The notes below the pieces were generated by a model. That model was given only the letters and a program-made list of their open reading frames with translations, made no database searches and had not been told where the DNA came from. A program made the translations under genes and the position numbers. From Candidatus Woesearchaeota archaeon (GTDB lineage Archaea; Nanobdellota; Nanobdellia; Woesearchaeales; UBA10216): a DNA stretch of 64,000 nucleotides. Shown piece by piece: positions 4,276 to 29,509 of this stretch. The DNA lies in assembly GCA_016192905.1 (NCBI GenBank), contig JACPTG010000001.1, positions 505,935 to 569,934 on the forward strand, read 5' to 3'. Every line of letters starts with the position of its first letter. Position 1 is the first letter of the stretch.

Positions 4276-5076
4276 ATGAAACAGAAGATAAGCATAACAA
4301 TAGATGAAAAAATACTAAAGGACATAGACAGCCTCATAGACAACCTGCTCATAAGAAACAGGAGCCAGGCAATAGAATACCTTGTGAAAAGCTCGCTGGG
4401 CGGCCACAGGACAGCGGTAATACTGGCAGGAGGGGATGAAAGGGAACTGGAACTGGCTCCCGGAGCATACAGCCCCACGGCAAACATGGGAAAGGCGACC
4501 GTGGCAGAAAAGGCTGTGGCCAAGCTAAGGGAAAACGGCTTCAAGGAAATACACTACATAGCCAGGCACAAGATACTAACCCAGGCATTTAACATACTAA
4601 AGGACGGAAGCGGCCACGGAGTAAAAATGCATTACATAGAGGAGAAAAGCTCCAGCGGGACAGCCTCAACACTCAGACTGGTCAAGGGCAAGCTGCGGAC
4701 AGGCTTCCTGGTGGTCTACGGAGACATACTTTTTGACAAGGTCAACATTGAAGAGCTCTGGAGCCAGCACGCCAGAAGCAACTCAATAGCCACAATAATG
4801 CTCACCACCTCTGCAAAGCCGGAGGAAAAGGGAACTGTGAAAATGGAGGGCAACAAGGTTCTTGAATTCGTACAGAAACCAAAAAAATCAGACATACACC
4901 TCGTATTCTCGCCCATAATCGCCGCATCTGAAGAGCTGCTGGACCATCAGGGAGCCAGCCTTGAGTACGACGTATTCCCAAAACTGGCCTCAAAAGGGCT
5001 CCTCCAAGGACACGTAAGCTCAGAGAAGGAAATACACCTGCACAGCATTGAGGACCTAAACAGGATTAAAAAGTGA
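4276..5076 (+). CDS. ribbon-helix-helix domain fused to a degenerate sugar nucleotidyltransferase domain
   Basis: N-terminal MKQKISITIDEKILKDID...NRSQAIE (RHH), then AVILAGG, YGDILF and FVQKP; TATAAATA at 4243. Confidence 0.8.
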   Translation: MKQKISITIDEKILKDIDSLIDNLLIRNRSQAIEYLVKSSLGGHRTAVILAGGDERELELAPGAYSPTANMGKATVAEKAVAKLRENGFKEIHYIARHKILTQAFNILKDGSGHGVKMHYIEEKSSSGTASTLRLVKGKLRTGFLVVYGDILFDKVNIEELWSQHARSNSIATIMLTTSAKPEEKGTVKMEGNKVLEFVQKPKKSDIHLVFSPIIAASEELLDHQGASLEYDVFPKLASKGLLQGHVSSEKEIHLHSIEDLNRIKK

Positions 5077-5193
5077 TGAACAGCGAACCTGGGTTCCCGC
5101 ATGAAAATGCAGTACTGCCTGGAACGTGCGCCCGCTTGACTGCTGAGTTCGGAAAGGGATCAGGTATTTCCGGGCGGCCATGGCCGTTCATCA
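5074..5193 (-). rRNA. rrf: 5S rRNA
   Basis: 120 nt; terminal helix TGATGAAC/GTTCATCA; conserved CCTGATCCCTTTCCGAACTCAGCAGTCAAG, AGTACTG and GGGAAC elements on the minus strand. Confidence 0.93.
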
Positions 5194-20135: not shown

Positions 20136-20234
20136 AGTATTGCGTTTTTCCTTTTAAGTCGGATAAGATTTTTGAAGAAAAACTCCAGGGCATAATTAAC
20201 TTTATAAACCTGCCAGTTTTCTATCCCTTTTTTG

Positions 20235-21296
20235 ATGGACGCTTATATAGAGCTGGAAGACAGCACTAAATTCTACGGCAAATCATTCGGGTCGGAAGAG
20301 GCGGCGGCAGGAGAAGTTGTCTTTAATACCGGAATGGTCGGGTATCCTGAAAGCCTCACCGACGCCAGCTACAAGGGCCAGATACTGGTACTTACATATC
20401 CCCTTATAGGAAACTACGGCGTGCCAGGAGATGAAAAGGATGAACTCGGCCTCCTGGCCAATTTTGAATCCCCAAGAATACAGGTAAGGGGCCTGGTCGT
20501 TGCAGACTACTCAGCAAAATACAGCCACTGGAAAGCTGTAAGAAGCCTTGGAGACTGGCTGAAGGAGCAGCGAATCCCTGCCATAACAGGAGTTGACACC
20601 AGGGCGCTGACGAAAAAGCTGCGGGAGAAGGGAGTGATGCTCGGCGGAATTTCGGCAGACGGCAGCAGTCCTGAGCTAAAGGACCCGAACCTTGGAAATC
20701 TTGTCGCTGATGTTGCCGAGCCTGGAAGGATTATCTACAATGGCAGCGGCAGGAAGAAAATACTGCTGGTTGACTGCGGGGTAAAGAACAACATAATAAG
20801 ATGCCTGGCTGCAAGAGGGCTGCAAGTGATTAGAGTGCCGTGGGACTATGATTTCCTAAAGGAAGATTTTGACGGGCTGGTGATAAGCAACGGGCCAGGA
20901 GACCCAAAGATGTGCAAAGCCACGATAAGAAATGTGGCGGCAGCCATGGGCAAGGAAGTGCCAACATTCGGAATATGCCTGGGGAACCAGATAATGGCGC
21001 TTGCAGCAGGAGGGGACACATACAAGCTGAAGTACGGGCACAGAAGCCAGAACCAGCCCTGCATAAACCGAAAAACAGGAAGGTGCTGCATAACCACGCA
21101 GAACCACGGGTATGCGGTTGACTTTAAATCAATGCCCTCTGGATGGGAAGAGCTGTTTGTGAATGCAAACGATGGCACAAATGAAGGATTGAGGCACAGA
21201 AGCAAGCCTTTCATTTCCTGCCAATTCCACCCTGAGGCAACGCCTGGCCCCGTAGACACCCAATATTTGTTTGACGAGTTCCTGAGGATGCTGTAA
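20235..21296 (+). CDS. carA: carbamoyl-phosphate synthase small subunit
   Basis: GEVVFNTGMVGYPESLTD, SNGPGDP, GICLGNQ and QFHPEA motifs. Confidence 0.97.
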   Translation: MDAYIELEDSTKFYGKSFGSEEAAAGEVVFNTGMVGYPESLTDASYKGQILVLTYPLIGNYGVPGDEKDELGLLANFESPRIQVRGLVVADYSAKYSHWKAVRSLGDWLKEQRIPAITGVDTRALTKKLREKGVMLGGISADGSSPELKDPNLGNLVADVAEPGRIIYNGSGRKKILLVDCGVKNNIIRCLAARGLQVIRVPWDYDFLKEDFDGLVISNGPGDPKMCKATIRNVAAAMGKEVPTFGICLGNQIMALAAGGDTYKLKYGHRSQNQPCINRKTGRCCITTQNHGYAVDFKSMPSGWEELFVNANDGTNEGLRHRSKPFISCQFHPEATPGPVDTQYLFDEFLRML

Positions 21297-21824: not shown

Positions 21825-21920
21825 AAACTAAAAAGTAGCAGGCTGTGGCTACCCCTATTTGGAAACTCCCTTCGGGAAACCGGAGGATTCAACGCAACAG
21901 CTTCGTGTACTGTAGCCAAA
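21825..21920. repeat. 96-nt dispersed intergenic repeat, copy 2
   Basis: Colinear with 10467-10562. Confidence 0.8.
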
Positions 21921-21955
21921 ACAAGAAAATTTTCAATGCAGCCGGAGGTGAAGAA

Positions 21956-22630
21956 ATGACATTATCCATAAGCCACAGGGGAGCTGGCTACCTTGAGCCT
22001 GAAAACACCCTGCGGGGCATACGAAAGGCAATAGAGCTTAAGGCTGACTATGCTGAAGTTGACGTCAGGCTGACAAAGGACCGGAAGCTTGCGGTGATAC
22101 ACGACGAGACAGTGGAGCGCACAACAAACGGCAGAGGGCTGGTGAGGGAAATGACTTTAAAACAGCTGCAAAAGCTGGATGCAGGCAAAGGCGATAGAAT
22201 ACCTGCGCTTGAGGAAGTCCTTGCCGAAGCGAAAGGCAGGATAAAACTGCTTGTTGAACTTAAGGAGGAAGGGCTGGAGCAGCAGGCGGTTGATGCGATT
22301 GAGAAAAGCGGATTTAAAGACGCGGCTATAATCTCCTCCCTAGCCCAACTGCTAAGGAGAGTGAGGCAGATAAGCAAGCTGAAAACAGGGCTGATTTTTC
22401 TGGGGGCGGACTGGAACGTAGAGCTTGCCGCAAAGCTCGGGGCATCATTAGCATTGCCAAACTTCCACTATACTGAGCGCGGGCTGATTGTAAAAGCCCA
22501 CAACGCTGGGCTGGAAGTTTTCACCGGGAACTGCGACAGCGAATATGACGTACGAATCATGAAGGCAATAGGCGCTGATGCGATATCGAGCAACAGGCCG
22601 GACATGCTCGTGAGGATGCTTTCAAAATGA
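21956..22630 (+). CDS. glycerophosphodiester phosphodiesterase family
   Basis: SHRGA..PENT, EVDVRLTKD and HDETVERTTNG motifs; SD GGAGGTG before ATG 21956. Confidence 0.92.
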   Translation: MTLSISHRGAGYLEPENTLRGIRKAIELKADYAEVDVRLTKDRKLAVIHDETVERTTNGRGLVREMTLKQLQKLDAGKGDRIPALEEVLAEAKGRIKLLVELKEEGLEQQAVDAIEKSGFKDAAIISSLAQLLRRVRQISKLKTGLIFLGADWNVELAAKLGASLALPNFHYTERGLIVKAHNAGLEVFTGNCDSEYDVRIMKAIGADAISSNRPDMLVRMLSK

Positions 22631-23157
22631 AAGAGGAATACCTTGACATTGTGGACGAGGAGGATAATGTAGTAAGGCAGGCCACCTGGAAGGAGATGAT
22701 GGACCGCAAGCTGCTACACAGGACGGCTAACGTATTTGTGCTCAATTCAAAAGGCGAGCTGTTCGTCCACAGAAGGGCAGAGCACCTCAGGCTTTACCCA
22801 GGCCTGTGGGATGTTAAAGTAGGGGGTTCTGTAAGGGCCGGGGAAAGCTATGAAGATGCAGGAAAAAGGGAGGTCATGGAGGAAACCGGAGCAACAAATG
22901 TCAAACTGACAGAAATTTTCAGGATAAAGTACAGGAAACCAGAGCACAATGTCAACAGGTGCGTGTTCAAGTGCGTTTACGACGGAAAGATAAAAATTGA
23001 CGAGACGGAAGTTGCTGAGGGGAAGTTCACAAGCATTGATGATGCAAAAAAGATGATGGCTGACGGGAAACTTTCACCTTCGGCAACTGATGTATTTATG
23101 CGATTTTTGAGGCAAAACAAAAATGACCAAAATCCGGAAAATTTACGGAAAAATTAG
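22627..23157 (+). CDS. NUDIX hydrolase (paralog of 21299-21811)
   Basis: DIVDEED, LLHR, YPGLWD and GGSVRAGESYEDAGKREVMEETG Nudix box. Confidence 0.88.
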   Translation: MKEEYLDIVDEEDNVVRQATWKEMMDRKLLHRTANVFVLNSKGELFVHRRAEHLRLYPGLWDVKVGGSVRAGESYEDAGKREVMEETGATNVKLTEIFRIKYRKPEHNVNRCVFKCVYDGKIKIDETEVAEGKFTSIDDAKKMMADGKLSPSATDVFMRFLRQNKNDQNPENLRKN

Positions 23158-23188
23158 CACTGGACACTGGACAAGTGCCCCCCTAAGC

Positions 23189-23392
23189 TTTATTAAGGGC
23201 TGTTTTTCAAGCTGTGTTGCGCTTCGGGCGCACGCAGAGCTGCTAAATTATGATTTTCCCCCCTTTGCGGGTCGGCCTGACAACCTAAAATCAATTATGC
23301 AGCTCTGCTTAACGCGCCCTTCGCTTCAGAACCAGAGTTCCTTCAGAGTGGAAGGAACTCTTACAAAAGCTAATAGTTCTGGAGGCAATAAA
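23189..23392 (+). promoter_or_regulatory. TATA box plus highly structured 5' leader
   Basis: TTTATTAA at 23189; helices GCAGAGCTGC/GCAGCTCTGC (23234/23299), AGAGTTCCTTC/GAAGGAACTCT (23334/23351) and CTTCAGAAC/GTTCTGGAG overlapping the SD GGAGG. Confidence 0.6.
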
Positions 23393-24412
23393 ATGAAAAA
23401 CGATTTTGAAATACATTTTTGGGAACTATCAGAAAGAGTAAGATTGCACATTAATGATGAATACTTAAAAAATCTTTTTGACAAAGCATCGGATGGAGGT
23501 TTGTATAAACTTGCTAAAACCCTTAATATTTCCTATCCGTTTATTATCGCTTTAAGACGAGGCGTTTATAGTATTCCAAGTAAGATTTTGGTTCAACTTG
23601 CTATAGAAGCTAATGAAGACCTTTATTCAATTGAGGACCAAATCAAAGAAATAGGAACACGAGCTGGAACTAAATGCAAAATCAAATTCCCTATTAAGAC
23701 AACTTCTCAAATGGCCTCCCTAGTTGGCCATGTTTTTGGCGATGGATATATTGGAAACAAAAAGCGGCAATTTGAATATTGTAATGACAATATTAATCTT
23801 CTTAATGAAGTTAGGGAAAATGTTAAAATAATTTTTGGATTAGATCCAATGACCGAAAGAATAAATAGAATAGGCTATCCCACAATAGTTGGAGAAGTGC
23901 TTGTAAAATTCGGGGCACATTTTTCGCCTAAAATAAGATCTGAAAAGCTTGTTCCAGAATGGGTAAAGTTTGGCTCAATAGAATATAAGAGAGCATTTAT
24001 TAGGTCTCTTTTCAATGACGACGGATCCGTTCTTTTTTCAGAAAATTACAAAGCGAAAGGCGTAAATTATTATCAAATTCGCCATAAAGATTTAACTGAA
24101 ACTTCACAACAGTTGCTTCAGGAAATAAAGGAAATGCTTGAAGATTTTGATGTTTTTTCAGGAAAACCTCACACAAGAAACACTTATGTTAGCCACGGCG
24201 AAGAACATACCATCAGTTATATAAATATAACAAATACTGCCAGCATTATTAATTTTCATAACCGAATAGGATTAGCAGAAGGGAATAAGTTCAACAGACT
24301 TAAAAAAATAATTAAAAGAGATGGAGGAATAGTGCTAAAAGATAAACCAAAAAAGGTTTTAGTGCTTGGAAGTGGCGCATTGAAGATTGGAGAGGCCGGC
24401 GAGAGTGCCTGA
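23393..24412 (+). CDS. free-standing LAGLIDADG homing endonuclease with N-terminal HTH
   Basis: SLVGHVFGDG and AFIRSLFNDDGSV motifs; SD GGAGG before ATG 23393; AT-richer than flanks; C-terminus reads into carB exon 1. Confidence 0.85.
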   Translation: MKNDFEIHFWELSERVRLHINDEYLKNLFDKASDGGLYKLAKTLNISYPFIIALRRGVYSIPSKILVQLAIEANEDLYSIEDQIKEIGTRAGTKCKIKFPIKTTSQMASLVGHVFGDGYIGNKKRQFEYCNDNINLLNEVRENVKIIFGLDPMTERINRIGYPTIVGEVLVKFGAHFSPKIRSEKLVPEWVKFGSIEYKRAFIRSLFNDDGSVLFSENYKAKGVNYYQIRHKDLTETSQQLLQEIKEMLEDFDVFSGKPHTRNTYVSHGEEHTISYINITNTASIINFHNRIGLAEGNKFNRLKKIIKRDGGIVLKDKPKKVLVLGSGALKIGEAGESA

Positions 24413-27400
24413 AAGCACCGCCATTTCGACTACTCCGGTTCACAGTGCATAAAAGCACTTAAAGAAGAAGGCATAAATGTAATTTTGGTAAATGGCAATA
24501 TAGCAACAAGGCAAACTGACCCTGGAATGGCGGACAGGATTTATTTCTTACCCATTACTCTTTTTTTTGTCGAAAAAATCATCGAAAAAGAAAGGCCTGA
24601 TGGAATCCTGCTGAGTTTCGGCGGGCAAACCGCTTTGAACTGCGGCGTTGAGCTTTATGACAATGGGGTTTTTGAAAAATACGGGGTCAAGGTTTTAGGC
24701 ACCCCGGTTGAAGCGATAAAGGCAACTGAAGACCGCGAGCTGTTTTCCATGAAACTTGCCGAAATAAATCTTAAGAGCCCAAAAAGCTTTGCTGTAAGGA
24801 AAGTCGAAGATGCTGTCAAGGCAGGCGACAAGATAGGATTTCCAGTCATAATCAGGGCCGCATATGCCCTTGGAGGGCTGGGAAGCGCCATATGCAGGAA
24901 TGAAGAGGGACTGGCTGACGCGGCGGGAAAAGCATTTGCCCACTCCAAACAAATACTGGTAGAGGAATACCTTGAGCACTGGAAAGAAATCGAGTATGAG
25001 GTTGTCCGGGACTCAATGGACAACTGCATAACCGTATGCAACATGGAAAACCTTGACCCAATGGGAATCCACACAGGAGAAAGCATTGTGGTAGCGCCAT
25101 CACAGACATTAACAAATTCCGAATACCACAAGCTAAGGGAAATATCAATAAGGCTGGTAAGGCACATTGGAATAGTCGGGGAATGCAATGTGCAATTTGC
25201 CCTCGACCCCAAGTCAGAGGACTACAGGATAATCGAGGTCAATGCAAGGCTTTCAAGAAGCTCGGCGCTCGCCTCAAAAGCAACGGGATACCCGCTGGCA
25301 TTCGTGGCTGCAAAGCTCGCGCTAGGATACGGCCTGACAGAAATACAGAATTCCATAACAAAATCCACCACCGCCTGCTTTGAGCCAGCACTTGATTACA
25401 TAGTCGTGAAGATGCCAAGATGGGACATGAAGAAATTCCGCCAGGTGTCCAGGAACATCGGAAGCTCAATGAAATCGGTCGGGGAGGTGATGGCTATAGG
25501 CAGAAAATTCGAGGAAGCCCTCCAGAAGGCAATAAGGATGCTGGACATTGGCGCGCAGGGACTGGTCTGCAACAGGGACAACTACAAGAGCCTTGACGTT
25601 GAAAAAGAGCTGGCAAATCCCACAGACGAGAGGATATTTGCAATTGCGGAAGCCCTGAATAAAGGATATCCTGTGGAAAAAATTTCTGAATTAACAGGGA
25701 TTGACAAGTGGTTCCTTGGAAAAATGGAAAACGTAACAGAAATGGAAAAGCAGCTTTCAACCGCCGGAAAACTTGAAAACCTCCGCAATGGCGACATTCT
25801 GAAGGCAAAGCAGCTTGGCTTTTCAGACAAGCAGATTTCAATCCTTCTGCAATGCTCCCATGCGGATGTCAGGAAATACAGGGATAAACTGGGAATCAGG
25901 CCGTTTGTAAAGCAAATAGACACACTTGCCGCAGAATACCCTGCAAAAACCAACTACCTCTACCTTACATACAACAGCATCGAAGACGACATAAAATCTG
26001 GAGCTGAGAGGAAAGTGATAGTGCTGGGCTCGGGCGTGTACAGGATAGGCAGCTCCGTGGAATTTGACTGGTGCTGCGTAAACTCAGCCCTTACACTCAG
26101 GGAGCTGGGATACGGCACAATAATGATAAACTACAACCCGGAAACAGTGAGCACTGACTACGACATGTGCGACAAGCTTTACTTTGACGAAATATCATTC
26201 GAGACAATCGCTGAGATATACGAAAAGGAAAAACCTGAAGGCGTCATTATCTCAATGGGCGGGCAAATACCAAACAACATGGCAATGAAACTCAGTGAGG
26301 CAGGGATAAAAATACTTGGAACCAAGGCACGCAGCATTGACGCAGCAGAGGACAGGCACAAGTTCTCAAAACTCCTGGATGAACTGGGAATACCACAGCC
26401 AAAATGGAGGGAGCTGACAAACTTTGAGGAAGCCAAGAAATTTGCAGCCAATGCGGGGTATCCTGTGCTTGTAAGGCCCTCCTATGTGCTCAGCGGAGCC
26501 GCGATGAGCGTCGCCTTCAACGACGAAGACCTTGAAACGTACCTTACCAGGGCATCAAAAGTAAACAGGGAACATCCAGTGGTAATAAGCAAATTCATGG
26601 TAAACTCAAAGGAAATTGAAATTGACGCCGTCGCATATGAAGGCAACCTGATTGCAGAAGCCATAACAGAGCACGTTGAAAACGCAGGAGTCCATTCCGG
26701 AGATGCCACAATGATTTACCCGGCAGCCGGGCTGTACCCTGAAACTGTTGAAAAGGTGAGGACAATCGCAGCATTGATAGCTGAGAAGCTGAAAATAACC
26801 GGGCCCTTCAACATACAATTCCTGGCCAAGGACAATGAGGTAATGGTAATAGAATGCAACCTGAGGGCGAGCAGAAGCTTCCCCTTTGTCTCAAAGGTAA
26901 AAAAGAGCAACATGATAGCAATAGCAACAAATGCGATAATGGGAAGGAAAATCCAGGAGGAAGCAAAGAGCATGGAGTATTTCGGCGTAAAATCGCCGCA
27001 GTTCTCCTTTTCAAGGCTGAAAGGGGCTGACCCGGTCCTAAGCGTTGAGATGGCGTCAACAGGCGAAGTTGCCTGCCTTGGGAGAAACGCGCATGACGCC
27101 TTCCTTAAGGCAACGATAGCCGCGGGCCTTAAAATGCAGCTGCTGCAAAACGGCGAAGAAAACCAAGGCCCGAAAAATGTGCTCTTAAGCATCGGCGGCA
27201 GCGAGAACAAGGAGAGATTCCTGGAACACTCAAGAAAGCTTGCTGACCTGGGGTTCAATGTTTATGCAACCGACAATACCTCACAGTTCCTGGCAGAAAA
27301 TGGGGTCAAAAACTTGATGCTGCACAAGGTCAGAGAGCAGAAATCGCCAAACATAATGGAGTACCTTAACAACCACAAGCTAAACCTGATAATCAATGTT

Positions 27401-27580
27401 TCAAAGCCAGGCTCAGGCAACGGGAAGGAAAAGATAAGGGACGGATATGTGATAAGGAGAAGCGCGGCTGATTACGGGATTCCACTTGTGACCAACCTGC
27501 AGCTGGCCAAAATGCTGGTGGATTCAATTGCAGAAGTAAAGCTGGAATCACTGGAAATCAAAGCATGGGATGAATACTGA
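24332..27580 (+). CDS. carB: carbamoyl-phosphate synthase large subunit, split: exon 1 24332-24403 and exon 2 24425-27580 (1075 aa after splicing)
   Basis: GTG 24332 after GGAGG; KKVLVLGSGALKIGEAGE|FDYSGSQ; two ATP-grasp domains and a C-terminal MGS domain intact. Confidence 0.95.
24404..24424 (+). other. putative 21-nt bulge-helix-bulge-type mRNA intron
   Basis: GGCG-AG^A-GTGC-CTGAAA-GCAC-CGCC-AT^T; removal gives GGC GAG TTC GAC TAC (GEFDY) and deletes an in-frame TGA. Confidence 0.85.
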
Positions 27581-27798
27581 TGAAACACACCTCCAGGCCA
27601 ACAGCTGCTGAAAAAAGAAAATACGTCCTTCGGACAGCAGAAGACAGGGAAATACTCGCCAAATGCAAGGCGCTTGAGGCATTAAGGCTCTCCAGAAGCG
27701 ATAAGCTTACTGTAAAGTTGATAAAGTCGCAGCTAATCAGGGAATGGAGAAATCCTCTAATCAAGAAACTTAACCAAATCGCAAGGAAGTACAAATGA
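27580..27798 (+). CDS. small basic hypothetical protein
   Basis: 72-aa ORF translationally coupled to carB and pyrD. Confidence 0.7.
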   Translation: MKHTSRPTAAEKRKYVLRTAEDREILAKCKALEALRLSRSDKLTVKLIKSQLIREWRNPLIKKLNQIARKYK

Positions 27799-28712
27799 AA
27801 CCTGACCTAAGAGCCAAGATACTAGGGGTGGAACTAGGGAACCCCACTATACTGGCATCAGGAATAATGGGCGTATCCGGGGCTGCATGCTGCTATGCGG
27901 CAAAGAACGGGGCAGGGGCTGTGATACCCAAGTCAATCGGGCCGAAGGAAAGGGAAGGCCACGCAAACCCTGTGCTTGTGGAATTTGACAAGGGATTCCT
28001 GAATGCAGTCGGCCTGCCGAATTCAGGAGTGGACAACAGCCTTGGCGAGATAGAGTTTGCAATGAAGAATTCCGGAGTTCCTGTCATTCCGAGCCTGTTT
28101 GGCGGGACCAAGGAGGAGTTCGGCATGGTCGCAGAGAAACTGGACACCCTAAGGCCACAGCTAATTGAGGTCAACCTTTCCTGCCCAAACACGCAAGATG
28201 ATTTCGGGCTGGCCTTTGCGCTCTCGGAAAAGGACGCTGGCGAAGTAATAAAGCTGGTCAAAAGCAAGGTCAGGGCAAAGGTGATAGCAAAGCTTGCGCC
28301 CAATGTTCCGGACATAAAGACAATAGCCAGGGCTGTTGAAAAAGCCGGGGCAGATGCAATCACCGCAGTAAACACCATGCCGGGAATGGCAATCGACGCA
28401 AAAACCGGAAACCCCTTACTTCACAACAAGCAAGGAGGAATAAGCGGCCCTGCACTCAGGCCGATAGCGGTAAACTGCATTTATGAAATATACAAGGCAG
28501 TCAACATCCCGATTATTGGGGCAGGAGGTGTAACACATGGGGAAGACGCTGCCGAGATGATAATGGCAGGGGCTGCGGCTGTTGAGATAGGCACAGGCAT
28601 ATACTACAGGGGGATAGACGTATTCAGGAAAGTCAGCGGAGAGCTGGAGCAGCTTATGGCTGAGAATGGATACGCCACAATAAAGGAAATGACTGGAGTT
28701 TCGCACAGATGA
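27795..28712 (+). CDS. pyrD: dihydroorotate dehydrogenase, catalytic subunit (family 1B)
   Basis: NAVGLPN, EVNLSCPN, KLAPNV and GGISGPALRPIA motifs. Confidence 0.95.
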   Translation: MKPDLRAKILGVELGNPTILASGIMGVSGAACCYAAKNGAGAVIPKSIGPKEREGHANPVLVEFDKGFLNAVGLPNSGVDNSLGEIEFAMKNSGVPVIPSLFGGTKEEFGMVAEKLDTLRPQLIEVNLSCPNTQDDFGLAFALSEKDAGEVIKLVKSKVRAKVIAKLAPNVPDIKTIARAVEKAGADAITAVNTMPGMAIDAKTGNPLLHNKQGGISGPALRPIAVNCIYEIYKAVNIPIIGAGGVTHGEDAAEMIMAGAAAVEIGTGIYYRGIDVFRKVSGELEQLMAENGYATIKEMTGVSHR

Positions 28713-29509
28713 AAATGGAAAGGCCGCAGATAGCCGCGATAAAAAGGGTTGAAGAAGAGGCTGACGGGATAAAGACAATATTCCTCAACAGCAGCATGAA
28801 AGCCAGGCACGGGCAGTTCATAATGCTCTGGCTTCCAAGAATAGACGAGAAGCCATTTGCAGTAAGCTACGCATCAAAGGGGGAAATAGGGATAACTGTC
28901 GCCGCGGTGGGCCCATTCTCTGAAAAACTGAGCCTGATGAGAGCTGGTGAAAAAATAGGGGTAAGAGGGCCATACGGAAGGCCATACACGCTTGCCAAGG
29001 GAAATCTTGTTATGATAGGAGGGGGCTATGGCTCTGCAAGCCTTGCGATGCTGGCAGAAGAAGCCGCCAGGAAGATGACAAGGGTCAAGTTTATCCTGGG
29101 AGCAAGGAGCAAAAGCAGGCTGGTCTATGTTGAGAGGATTAAGCGGCTAATAGGGGAAGAAAACCTGACAATAACCACAGACGACGGCAGCGCAGGAAGG
29201 AAAGGGCTTGTGACAGACGCGCTCAAGGAGATGATTGCCCGCGAGAAAATAGACAAGATTTATGCCTGCGGGCCGGATAAGATGCTAAAGGCAGTGGCCA
29301 GCATCGGACATGAAGCAGGGATACCAGGCGAGATAAGCATGGAGCGCTACATGAAATGCGGATTCGGGCTCTGCGGCCACTGCTGCGTGGACCCCATCGG
29401 AATAAGATTATGCGTTGAAGGGCCTGTAATTGACTTCGGGACTGCCATGCAGGTCAAGGAGCTGGGACTTTACCATAGATTGAAGAGCAGCAGGAAGGAA
29501 GCGATATAA
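28709..29509 (+). CDS. pyrK: dihydroorotate dehydrogenase electron-transfer subunit
   Basis: GQFIMLWLP, RGPYG, TTDDGS and ERYMKCGFGLCGHC [2Fe-2S] motifs. Confidence 0.93.
   Translation: MKMERPQIAAIKRVEEEADGIKTIFLNSSMKARHGQFIMLWLPRIDEKPFAVSYASKGEIGITVAAVGPFSEKLSLMRAGEKIGVRGPYGRPYTLAKGNLVMIGGGYGSASLAMLAEEAARKMTRVKFILGARSKSRLVYVERIKRLIGEENLTITTDDGSAGRKGLVTDALKEMIAREKIDKIYACGPDKMLKAVASIGHEAGIPGEISMERYMKCGFGLCGHCCVDPIGIRLCVEGPVIDFGTAMQVKELGLYHRLKSSRKEAI

Follow-up and report, generated by a model that had tools for sequence, protein, structure and literature searches.

Interrupted carB gene in a woesearchaeal genome

The stretch of DNA analyzed here (the window) comprises 64,000 nucleotides (nt) of contig JACPTG010000001.1 (forward-strand positions 505,935 to 569,934) from a metagenome-assembled genome of a Candidatus Woesearchaeota archaeon (GCA_016192905.1, here G000; 1.43 Mb in 6 contigs, 49% G+C, 95% completeness). 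It contains the carbamoyl-phosphate synthetase gene carB, whose reading frame is interrupted near the 5' end by a 21-nt insert with an in-frame stop codon. The frame reads ...LKIGEAGE, continues through seven additional codons (S, A, stop, K, H, R, and H), and resumes with FDYSGSQ... in unchanged phase; the insert thus separates the E codon from the F codon in GEAGEFDYSG, a conserved CarB motif. Excluding the insert, 24 codons of exon 1 and 1051 codons of exon 2 (stop codon at window position 27578-27580) add up to a gene of 1075 codons. Such an insert had been proposed in a previous reading of the stretch made without database searches (the sequence-only reading), and following the frame confirmed it. 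We consider it very probable that this is a real intron of the carB mRNA, that is, a mini-intron of the relaxed bulge-helix-bulge (BHB) type that would be spliced by the tRNA-splicing endonuclease EndA and the ligase RtcB. Coordinates of the features are collected in Table 1.

Table 1. Features of the carB region and of related loci (window coordinates unless a locus is named; ORF, open reading frame; MFE, minimum free energy)
Feature	Position	Strand	Evidence
carB exon 1, 24 codons, GTG start (24332) behind GGAGG	24332..24403	+	Reading frame; kept in all intron-bearing relatives
Central helix H, 5' strand GGCG, in exon 1	24398..24401	+	Pairs with 24419-24422
3-nt 5' bulge AGA; predicted cut after second nt, 24403/24404	24402..24404	+	Unpaired in MFE fold
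Predicted 21-nt mini-intron, TGA at 24410-24412	24404..24424	+	Reading frame and homologous 19- to 32-nt inserts in relatives
Inner hairpin h' (GTGC / loop CTGAAA / GCAC)	24405..24418	+	Fold and covariation
Central helix H, 3' strand CGCC, intron internal	24419..24422	+	Fold and alignment
Predicted 3' splice-site loop; predicted cut 24424/24425	24423..24429	+	Fold; boundary set by F codon at 24425
Outer exon-exon helix enclosing the motif	24385..24440	+	MFE fold; comparable helices in relatives' folds
carB exon 2, 1051 codons + stop	24425..27580	+	Pfam CPSase_L_D2 x2, CPSase_L_D1 x2, CPSase_L_D3, MGS
Homing-endonuclease-like ORF (LAGLIDADG_3)	23123..24331	+	PF14528, E 8.5e-9, residues 287-383
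carA (carbamoyl-phosphate synthetase small subunit), intact	20232..21296	+	PF00988 at G000:C1:526184-526585 = window 20250-20651, no stops
GDPD-family gene	21845..22630	+	PF03009, E 1.9e-36
NUDIX-family gene	22627..23157	+	PF00293, E 9.5e-18
pyrD (dihydroorotate dehydrogenase)	27795..28712	+	PF01180, E 2.9e-70
pyrK-like electron-transfer subunit	28709..29509	+	PF10418 and PF00175
5S rRNA gene	5075-5191	-	Rfam RF00001, 72.6 bits
Upstream endonuclease ORFs in relatives	L017:161-1411; L004:106-1413; L020:70-1437; L014:2733-4160(-); L188; L189		
Intein-bearing rtcB loci	L186:1501-4191(-); L181:1501-4212(-)		

Local fold at the insert

The unconstrained MFE fold of 24380-24445 contains a 4-bp central helix between the GGCG strand of exon 1 and the CGCC strand of the insert, a 3-nt bulge (AGA) at the 5' junction, and an inner hairpin (GTGC 24405-24408 with GCAC 24415-24418, loop 24409-24414). 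The same fold adds an outer exon-exon helix of 10 bp (24385-24394 with 24430-24440), which is set off from the central helix by a 3-nt/7-nt internal loop. The helix and bulge coordinates given by the sequence-only reading, including AGA at 24402-24404, ATT at 24423-24425, GGAG at 24389, and CTCC at 24433, proved exact, and the outer helix beyond the internal loop bears out the relaxed motif that it had proposed. The canonical hBHBh' arrangement, with two 3-nt bulges flanking a helix, is not satisfied; because the 5' junction is a proper bulge but the 3' junction is an internal loop, the motif can be placed only in the relaxed class, HBh' (Marck and Grosjean), set out in passages of PMC4090602 and PMC6379350.

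A self-splicing group I or group II intron was considered as well and was rejected, as there was no Rfam match within 23050-24500 at an E value of ≤1 and 21 nt is far too short for either.

Homologous inserts in related genomes

Exon 2 was searched in 41 genomes (G000 itself and members of its genus, family, and order), 25 of which had a match. The family is represented by 26 genomes; carB was found in 19, with a visible 5' end in 18. An insert is present exactly at the E/F boundary in 10 of these 18 genes and is absent from the other 8, as it is from all four carB genes found in other families of the order. The inserts are 21 nt (G000, G008, and G005), 20 nt (G016), or 19 nt (G001, of the same genus as G000) in length, or belong to a longer type of 29 nt (G006), 30 nt (G012), or 32 nt (G003, G018, and G017). 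Two metagenome contigs from other collections carry a G016-like carB with a 20-nt insert, one of them differing by a loop substitution only.

Six of the 10 inserts are not multiples of three and shift the frame, and each of the four in-frame inserts holds a stop codon (TGA, TAA, TGA, and TAA; G008 has TAA in place of the TGA of G000), so none of them can be translated through. Taken by itself, the in-frame insert of G000 could be read as seven translated codons forming a 7-residue loop, with TGA recoded (as selenocysteine, Trp, or Gly) or read through. The 19-nt insert of the same-genus relative, the 20-, 29-, and 32-nt inserts of others, and the differing stop codons leave this idea with next to no probability. 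Exon 2 has no TGA in its 1051 codons, and TGA is therefore not an ordinary sense codon here.

An assembly or sequencing artifact is no more credible. G000 is metagenome assembled, and the two runs covering the site may be its own source, but two DNA contigs from these runs span the site unchanged (depths of 21.7 and 28.4), and homologous inserts occur in nine other assemblies and in the two contigs from other collections. A contig of a second study covers only 24570-24674, and a further one covers nothing.

Both exons of carB are under purifying selection. The ratio of nonsynonymous to synonymous substitution rates (dN/dS), estimated over ~880 codons, was 0.19 for G000/G001 and 0.075 to 0.10 for three more distant intron-bearing pairs, a fourth pair being saturated. 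In all 10 genomes, exon 1 has its own start and an undisrupted coding sequence, even where its frame differs from that of exon 2. These observations bear on a further possibility, namely, that carB is a pseudogene or is 5' truncated (starting, e.g., at TTG 24485) and that the insert is an unremoved scar, perhaps of endonuclease damage. The longest plain ORF under translation table 11 does start at 24485, and homing-endonuclease genes do adjoin the site. However, the sequence-only reading had named a dN/dS near 1 as the mark of a pseudogene, and the values found were 0.08 to 0.19; the start and Shine-Dalgarno sequence of exon 1 are intact in the 10 genomes; compensatory changes maintain the helices (see below); and carA, pyrD, and pyrK are intact. 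Beginning translation at 24485 would, moreover, remove the conserved GSG...GEAGEFDYSG segment that all 12 intronless relatives keep. We regard a pseudogene or a truncation as very unlikely. The comparison of the inserts rules out read-through, recoding, and artifact for practical purposes, and decay is hard to reconcile with it.

Covariation and junction geometry

The 10 site sequences were aligned with MAFFT (alignment A1), and the two helices described in the sequence-only reading were scored. Pairing is kept in 93.8% of the 80 cells, and 4 of the 8 pairs change on both sides (17 cells); the alignment of carB genes with and without the insert that the sequence-only reading had suggested thus gave a positive result. 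None of 500 shuffles reached the observed pairing or covariation score, although the sequences are kin and this is not to be read as a probability. When the partner strand was slid by 1 to 3 columns, a control that retains kinship, pairing fell to 30 to 56% and double changes to zero. The pair at A1 columns 9/40 changes from C-G to U-A in 3 of the 10 sequences, and one covarying pair joins the synonymous third position of an exon 1 Gly codon to an intron base. In the inner hairpin, three of the four pairs change on both sides across the relatives. The inner three pairs of the central helix are kept in every sequence and the outermost in six, being G opposite A in four introns of 29 to 32 nt.

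The geometry of the junctions is equally constant. The 5' bulge is exactly 3 nt long, with A-G/A-A, in all 10 sequences, and the MFE fold of every genome has the exon-exon helix, the internal loop, a 3- to 4-bp helix, the 3-nt 5' bulge, and the inner hairpin; the internal loop at the 3' site is 3/7 nt in G000 and 3/3 nt in the 29- to 32-nt type. Splicing endonucleases cut after the second nucleotide of a bulge, a rule that we applied by placing each cut 2 nt beyond the 3' end of a 4-nt central-helix strand. Cuts placed in this way reproduce the homology-defined boundary in all 10 introns at this site and, as the sequence-only reading had claimed for G000, restore G-E-F-D-Y and the full-length gene. 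The chance of such a fit per fixed position and length is ~3e-4 (seven such pairs, with at most one G-U), in agreement with the genome-wide empirical rate. The significance of the motif arises because the rule-predicted cuts coincide exactly with boundaries that are defined independently by the protein, not only in G000 but also in nine further genomes and two metagenome contigs.

Further mini-introns in carB and rtcB

A second carB insert of 31 to 36 nt (site A) occurs in G001, G012, G016, and G005, 21 nt upstream of the insert described above (site B), and falls inside the Leu codon of G-S-G-A-L-K-I-G; the G000 window has none. On the gene strand of loci L002, L007, L014, and L020, site A lies ~60 to 100 nt upstream of position 1501. 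A scan with the cut rule gave the right junction in three of the four cases; the fourth, which was placed by analogy, shares the ends of the G005 insert and has an interrupted inner helix.

The single rtcB gene of G000 is interrupted by two inserts of the same kind, at C2:112795-112823 (29 nt) and C2:112896-112925 (30 nt), which answer the call of the sequence-only reading for a genome-wide look for other cases. In each, a perfect 4-bp helix is accompanied by a 3-nt bulge and by an inner helix of 9 bp that directly adjoins the 3' helix strand; applying the cut rule brings back the conserved protein segments H-E-G-Y-G-F-P-I-G-G and S-P-G-G-I-G-Y-D-V-N-C-G. We fetched 30 rtcB loci, of which a motif search resolved 18; among these, the site 1 insert occurs in seven genomes (29 to 32 nt) and the site 2 insert in six (29 to 34 nt), and the cut rule is correct for all 13. 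RNAalifold, given the sequences alone, returned the arrangement of helix, 3-nt bulge, and hairpin at both sites, with compensated changes in 7 of 13 pairs at site 1 and 2 of 17 at site 2. The site 1 intron of G000 is missing from G001, of the same genus, which makes for a clean presence/absence contrast. The site A and rtcB introns make us more confident that mRNA splicing occurs in this lineage.

In G018 and G016, the N-terminal part of rtcB and the remainder lie on different contigs and overlap in model positions (G018:C17:10839-11042 and G018:C11:13279-14511; G016:C22 and C23), and G018 also shows an open frame of 532 codons. Such arrangements may represent further insertions, genuinely split genes, or assembly breaks at the intron/intein region.

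Splicing machinery and weighing of the intron reading

G000 encodes one EndA of 183 amino acids (G000:C4:33480-34031) with both PF01974 and PF02778. Its best solved relatives are the Methanopyrus kandleri enzyme and the catalytic alpha subunit of Nanoarchaeum equitans, and the segments bearing the Y/H/K residues align. A PF01974 search of the genome returned a single match among three scored candidates and no second (beta) subunit. ARAGORN called only 34 tRNA genes in G000, 14 of them with predicted introns at varied positions, along with oddities such as a "tRNA-Stop (tta)" with an intron and one undetermined call, which suggests that G000 has many disrupted or noncanonical tRNA genes. According to a passage of PMC5829648, alpha4 enzymes bearing an additional L3 loop occur in DPANN lineages rich in disrupted tRNA genes.

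Several points weigh against splicing of the carB insert. The size of EndA suggests an enzyme of the alpha4 type, and alpha4 enzymes are restricted to canonical BHB motifs according to passages of two reviews (PMC4090602 and PMC5829648), the latter of which allows only (alpha-beta)2 and epsilon2 enzymes to cut noncanonical introns. The 3' splice site in carB is noncanonical, as it lies on the 7-nt strand 24423-24429 of the internal loop, opposite 24395-24397. The ligase gene is itself interrupted, and ligation capacity therefore depends on prior splicing. The fold is unremarkable in stability (z = -1.04; 33 of 200 shuffles were equally stable) and the bare motif is common, with 53,050 matches genome-wide; structure alone therefore proves nothing. 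The rule that the endonuclease cuts after the second bulge nucleotide finds no confirmation in the passages cited here, and among the tRNA introns of G000 itself, only 5 of the 14 ARAGORN calls fit it at zero shift with at least three of four helix pairs; many of these calls look unreliable, one being an intron of 7 nt. Finally, there is no RNA run among the public runs that hold the stretch, all of which are groundwater metagenome DNA.

The last point and the noncanonical 3' site also leave some room for removal or skipping of the insert without EndA and RtcB, by ribosomal bypassing of the phage T4 gene 60 type or by some other RNA processing, and the short gap that begins with a hairpin and holds a stop codon would suit bypassing. 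Matched take-off and landing codons are a hallmark of that process. In carB, however, exon 1 ends in GAG or GAA, and neither codon stands directly before the F codon in any of the 10 sequences. The conserved, covarying helix places both junctions 2 nt from its ends, which is the geometry of EndA and not that of a take-off hairpin, and the same geometry recurs at three other sites in two genes. We think removal or skipping by such other routes improbable and favor splicing of a BHB-type mini-intron.

We infer the excision itself, the RNA level at which it would take place, and EndA and RtcB as its agents from sequence comparison. After transcription, GGCG in exon 1 (the four bases before its final two) would pair with CGCC near the 3' end of the intron, and the 4-bp hairpin of the intron would stack on this central helix, leaving a 3-nt bulge at the 5' junction. 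EndA would then cleave on the 3' side of each central-helix strand, 2 nt away from it, and RtcB would join the exons, with release of the 21-nt intron, probably as a circle. Only the spliced mRNA would encode the 1075-residue CarB; translation of the unspliced mRNA would stop after 26 codons.

Genome-wide searches for more cases

Motif scans alone are statistically uninformative and are useful only together with homology. Matches to the relaxed motif combined with ORF joining (flanks of at least 80 codons) numbered 851, versus 464 in the reversed sequence; a strict 10-bp motif had 1215 matches versus 1240 in the control, and the motif combined with a coding-potential filter had 1505 versus 1609 for random segments. 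Among the 851 relaxed matches, 262 had a match in relatives, and only the carB junction passed. A search with 1506 junction peptides strongly supported three (carB and both rtcB introns; E ≤ 1e-17) and weakly supported 11 (E ≥ 0.004), against a reference set that contains carB and rtcB loci by design and is thus biased. The filter kept 17 of the 440 strict matches whose inner helix was 7 bp or longer, and by eye only the two rtcB introns gave a recognizable protein junction.

A motif-free census, in which 1975 ORFs from 750,986 bases of G004 (~62% of that intron-poor genome) were compared with G000 by tblastn, returned the carB insert as the only internal in-gap stop. This census is blind to introns shared with G004, to genes outside its coverage, and to short first exons, and it missed rtcB. 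One two-piece tblastn match in it was rejected as a gene junction, not an intron.

Gene neighborhood, homing endonucleases, and the mosaic 5' end of carB

The genes around carB are, in order, carA, a 170-codon ORF, the GDPD- and NUDIX-family genes, the LAGLIDADG ORF, carB, a 72-codon ORF, pyrD, and pyrK; the 5S rRNA gene is the sole Rfam family at gathering score in the whole window. The LAGLIDADG_3 ORF lies directly upstream of carB, and an ORF of 55% identity is found at the same place in G008. In G003, G005, G016, and both metagenome contigs, this place is taken by an ORF that contains HNH repeats of the "homing endonuclease associated" kind, three or four in number. ORFs of the two kinds have a common N-terminal leader (~80 to 90 residues) and a short tail, with a different nuclease core. 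Using four endonuclease queries (tblastn, E ≤ 1e-3, up to 1.5 kb upstream of carB), we found an endonuclease ORF upstream of 7 of the 12 intron-bearing carB loci and of none of the 12 intronless ones; the loci are kin, and no test was applied to this difference.

In G000, the endonuclease ORF and carB exon 1 share one frame and form a 429-codon ORF (table 11) that extends from 23123 to the intron TGA. Because there is no stop between them, automated gene calling could merge the two or assign either a wrong start. As to the nature of the 1.2-kb endonuclease element that precedes carB, a group I intron and a large BHB intron were both considered; the element has no Rfam match and, on inspection, lacks a terminal G at its presumed 3' end.

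In G005, the first 17 codons of the HNH-repeat ORF duplicate the beginning of carB (L020:89-140, M-N-L-P-K-K-V-L-V-L-G-S-G-A-L-K-I); ~1.3 kb downstream of this copy comes a second carB start, which is complete and has a Shine-Dalgarno sequence of its own. Judged by eye, the upstream copy could pair with the 3' splice site of site A, which would make the 1.4-kb element a BHB intron in its own right.

The sequences group by genus in the CarB tree (470 residues of exon 2), whereas the presence and type of the intron do not track the genera. Sister pairs differ in intron presence (G012/G024, G017/G013, and G006/G010) or in intron type (G016/G018). Exon 2 of G000 and G001 is 90 to 100% identical in eleven windows over nt 150 to 480 but only 57 to 83% identical in the first 150 nt, and G012/G024 behave likewise. 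Conversely, the distant genomes G000, G008, G016, and G005 are 80 to 87% identical over the first 30 nt and mostly 50 to 77% identical over the next 120 nt. Distant genomes thus share a carB 5' stretch together with the intron type, a pattern that suggests gene conversion of a carB 5' cassette. As a separate observation on the history of the gene, the closest matches to this CarB outside its own group include, at 62 to 69% identity, those of many Bacteroidota metagenome-assembled genomes and isolates, which fill most of the best 80 loci; this pattern-based ranking hints that a bacterial-type carB may have been acquired by transfer.

An association with homing elements is also seen in rtcB. In G021 and G035, the gene carries an intein that immediately precedes the D-V-N-C Cys; the G021 intein has a detected LAGLIDADG domain, and, judged by ORF length, G039 and G011 look like these two. 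The intein site is 11 nt downstream of mini-intron site 2.

We tentatively propose that the mini-introns are the RNA-level side of an arms race with homing endonucleases, in whose target sites they would sit and with which they would travel by gene conversion of the flanking exon. They would either make the host allele uncuttable or be deletion remnants of endonuclease-bearing BHB introns. The agents would be the free-standing LAGLIDADG and HNH-repeat genes in the case of carB and, equally tentatively, the LAGLIDADG intein site would be the target in rtcB. We hold this to be possible, though rather doubtful. If the first alternative is true, the system would be an archaeal, protein-spliced counterpart of "collaborative homing," in which EndA and RtcB restore the message.

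Phage collaborative homing, which Bonocora and Shub and Zeng et al. reportedly described in 2009, combines a free-standing endonuclease with an ORF-less intron and co-conversion of the flanking exon. The likeness is that a free-standing endonuclease gene adjoins a gene whose conserved target region is interrupted by a small ORF-less intron, with apparent co-conversion of flanking exon sequence. The phage introns, however, are self-splicing group I introns, whereas here the host is a cellular archaeon, splicing by EndA and RtcB is a prediction, and the link to the endonuclease is correlative.

Relation to known introns

A search of full-text literature, with most subscription journals outside its reach, returned no account of an mRNA intron in carB or rtcB, nor of a BHB intron in any DPANN mRNA, in agreement with the remark in the sequence-only reading that no carB intron was known. 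Passages of PMC7714728 (2020) name only cbf5 besides the 5' untranslated region (5'-UTR) case reported there, and where PMC5829648 (2018), PMC6379350 (2019), and PMC12397907 (2025) cite pre-mRNA introns, the citations in the relevant passages are limited to some or all of the cbf5 papers. PMC2738675 (2009) gives 16 to 44 bp for cbf5 introns and, in the part available, treats introns in other coding genes as predicted but not confirmed. As far as these partial sources go, cbf5 is thus the only other archaeal gene in whose coding sequence an intron of this kind has been documented. What would be new here are the gene, the superphylum, and apparently the type of enzyme.

The cbf5 intron of Crenarchaeota (Watanabe 2002; Yoshinari 2006; Yokobori 2009, PMC2738675) is the closest parallel: it is short, lies within the coding sequence, and breaks a conserved motif; gains and losses are patchy; some copies are in frame and yet must go; and removal is attributed to the tRNA-splicing endonuclease. 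Passages of PMC2738675 also contain the authors' speculation that such introns are possibly deletion derivatives of endonuclease-bearing introns. The differences are that cbf5 introns belong to the TACK group and splicing has been shown experimentally, whereas the carB intron is found in DPANN archaea from mesophilic groundwater and its splicing is predicted. Unlike cbf5, carB has, in some relatives, two intron sites within 21 nt, along with adjacent endonuclease genes and a mosaic 5' exon region. Yoshinari, in 2006, reportedly linked cbf5-type introns to a hetero-oligomeric (alpha-beta)2 or otherwise broad-specificity endonuclease. Only one alpha-type EndA gene was found here.

Outside Crenarchaeota, the 5'-UTR BHB intron of Haloferax volcanii HVO_1309, as described in passages of PMC7714728, is an EndA substrate in an mRNA, and its removal seems to matter for expression; it lies in an untranslated leader and was demonstrated in vivo and in vitro, whereas that of carB lies in coding sequence. 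Noncanonical (HBh' and hBH) tRNA introns and BHB rRNA introns resemble the carB intron in having a 4-bp helix, a 3-nt bulge, a flanking helix, and one site outside a proper bulge, and rRNA BHB introns often carry LAGLIDADG homing-endonuclease genes (passages of PMC4090602, PMC6379350, and PMC5829648). The carB intron differs from them in that its host RNA is an mRNA, it is far smaller than the endonuclease-bearing rRNA introns, and the endonuclease gene is beside it, not inside. The HAC1/XBP1 introns of eukaryotes, as presented in parts of PMC13149111 and PMC8718801, are likewise very short, spliceosome-independent introns of coding mRNAs, with joining by tRNA ligase or RtcB and a full protein that depends on splicing, but they rely on the IRE1 nuclease and another stem-loop motif and belong to a regulated stress response.

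Implications

If the carB and rtcB inserts are spliced as predicted, mRNA splicing by the tRNA machinery would extend to DPANN archaea and to genes of central metabolism (carB) and RNA repair (rtcB). The ligase for all such splicing would then be encoded by an mRNA that itself needs that ligase. An apparently alpha4-type endonuclease would handle relaxed motifs, which bears on the debate about coevolution of the enzymes and their substrates. Gene callers would mis-annotate such genes as truncated, frameshifted, or absent and would therefore bias the metabolic reconstructions behind claims of auxotrophy and host dependence in DPANN archaea. Finally, presence/absence differences between congeners, adjacent endonuclease genes, and mosaic flanks would together offer a directly testable system for the rise and spread of protein-spliced introns, a long-standing problem in explaining where the tRNA-type introns of archaea and eukaryotes came from.

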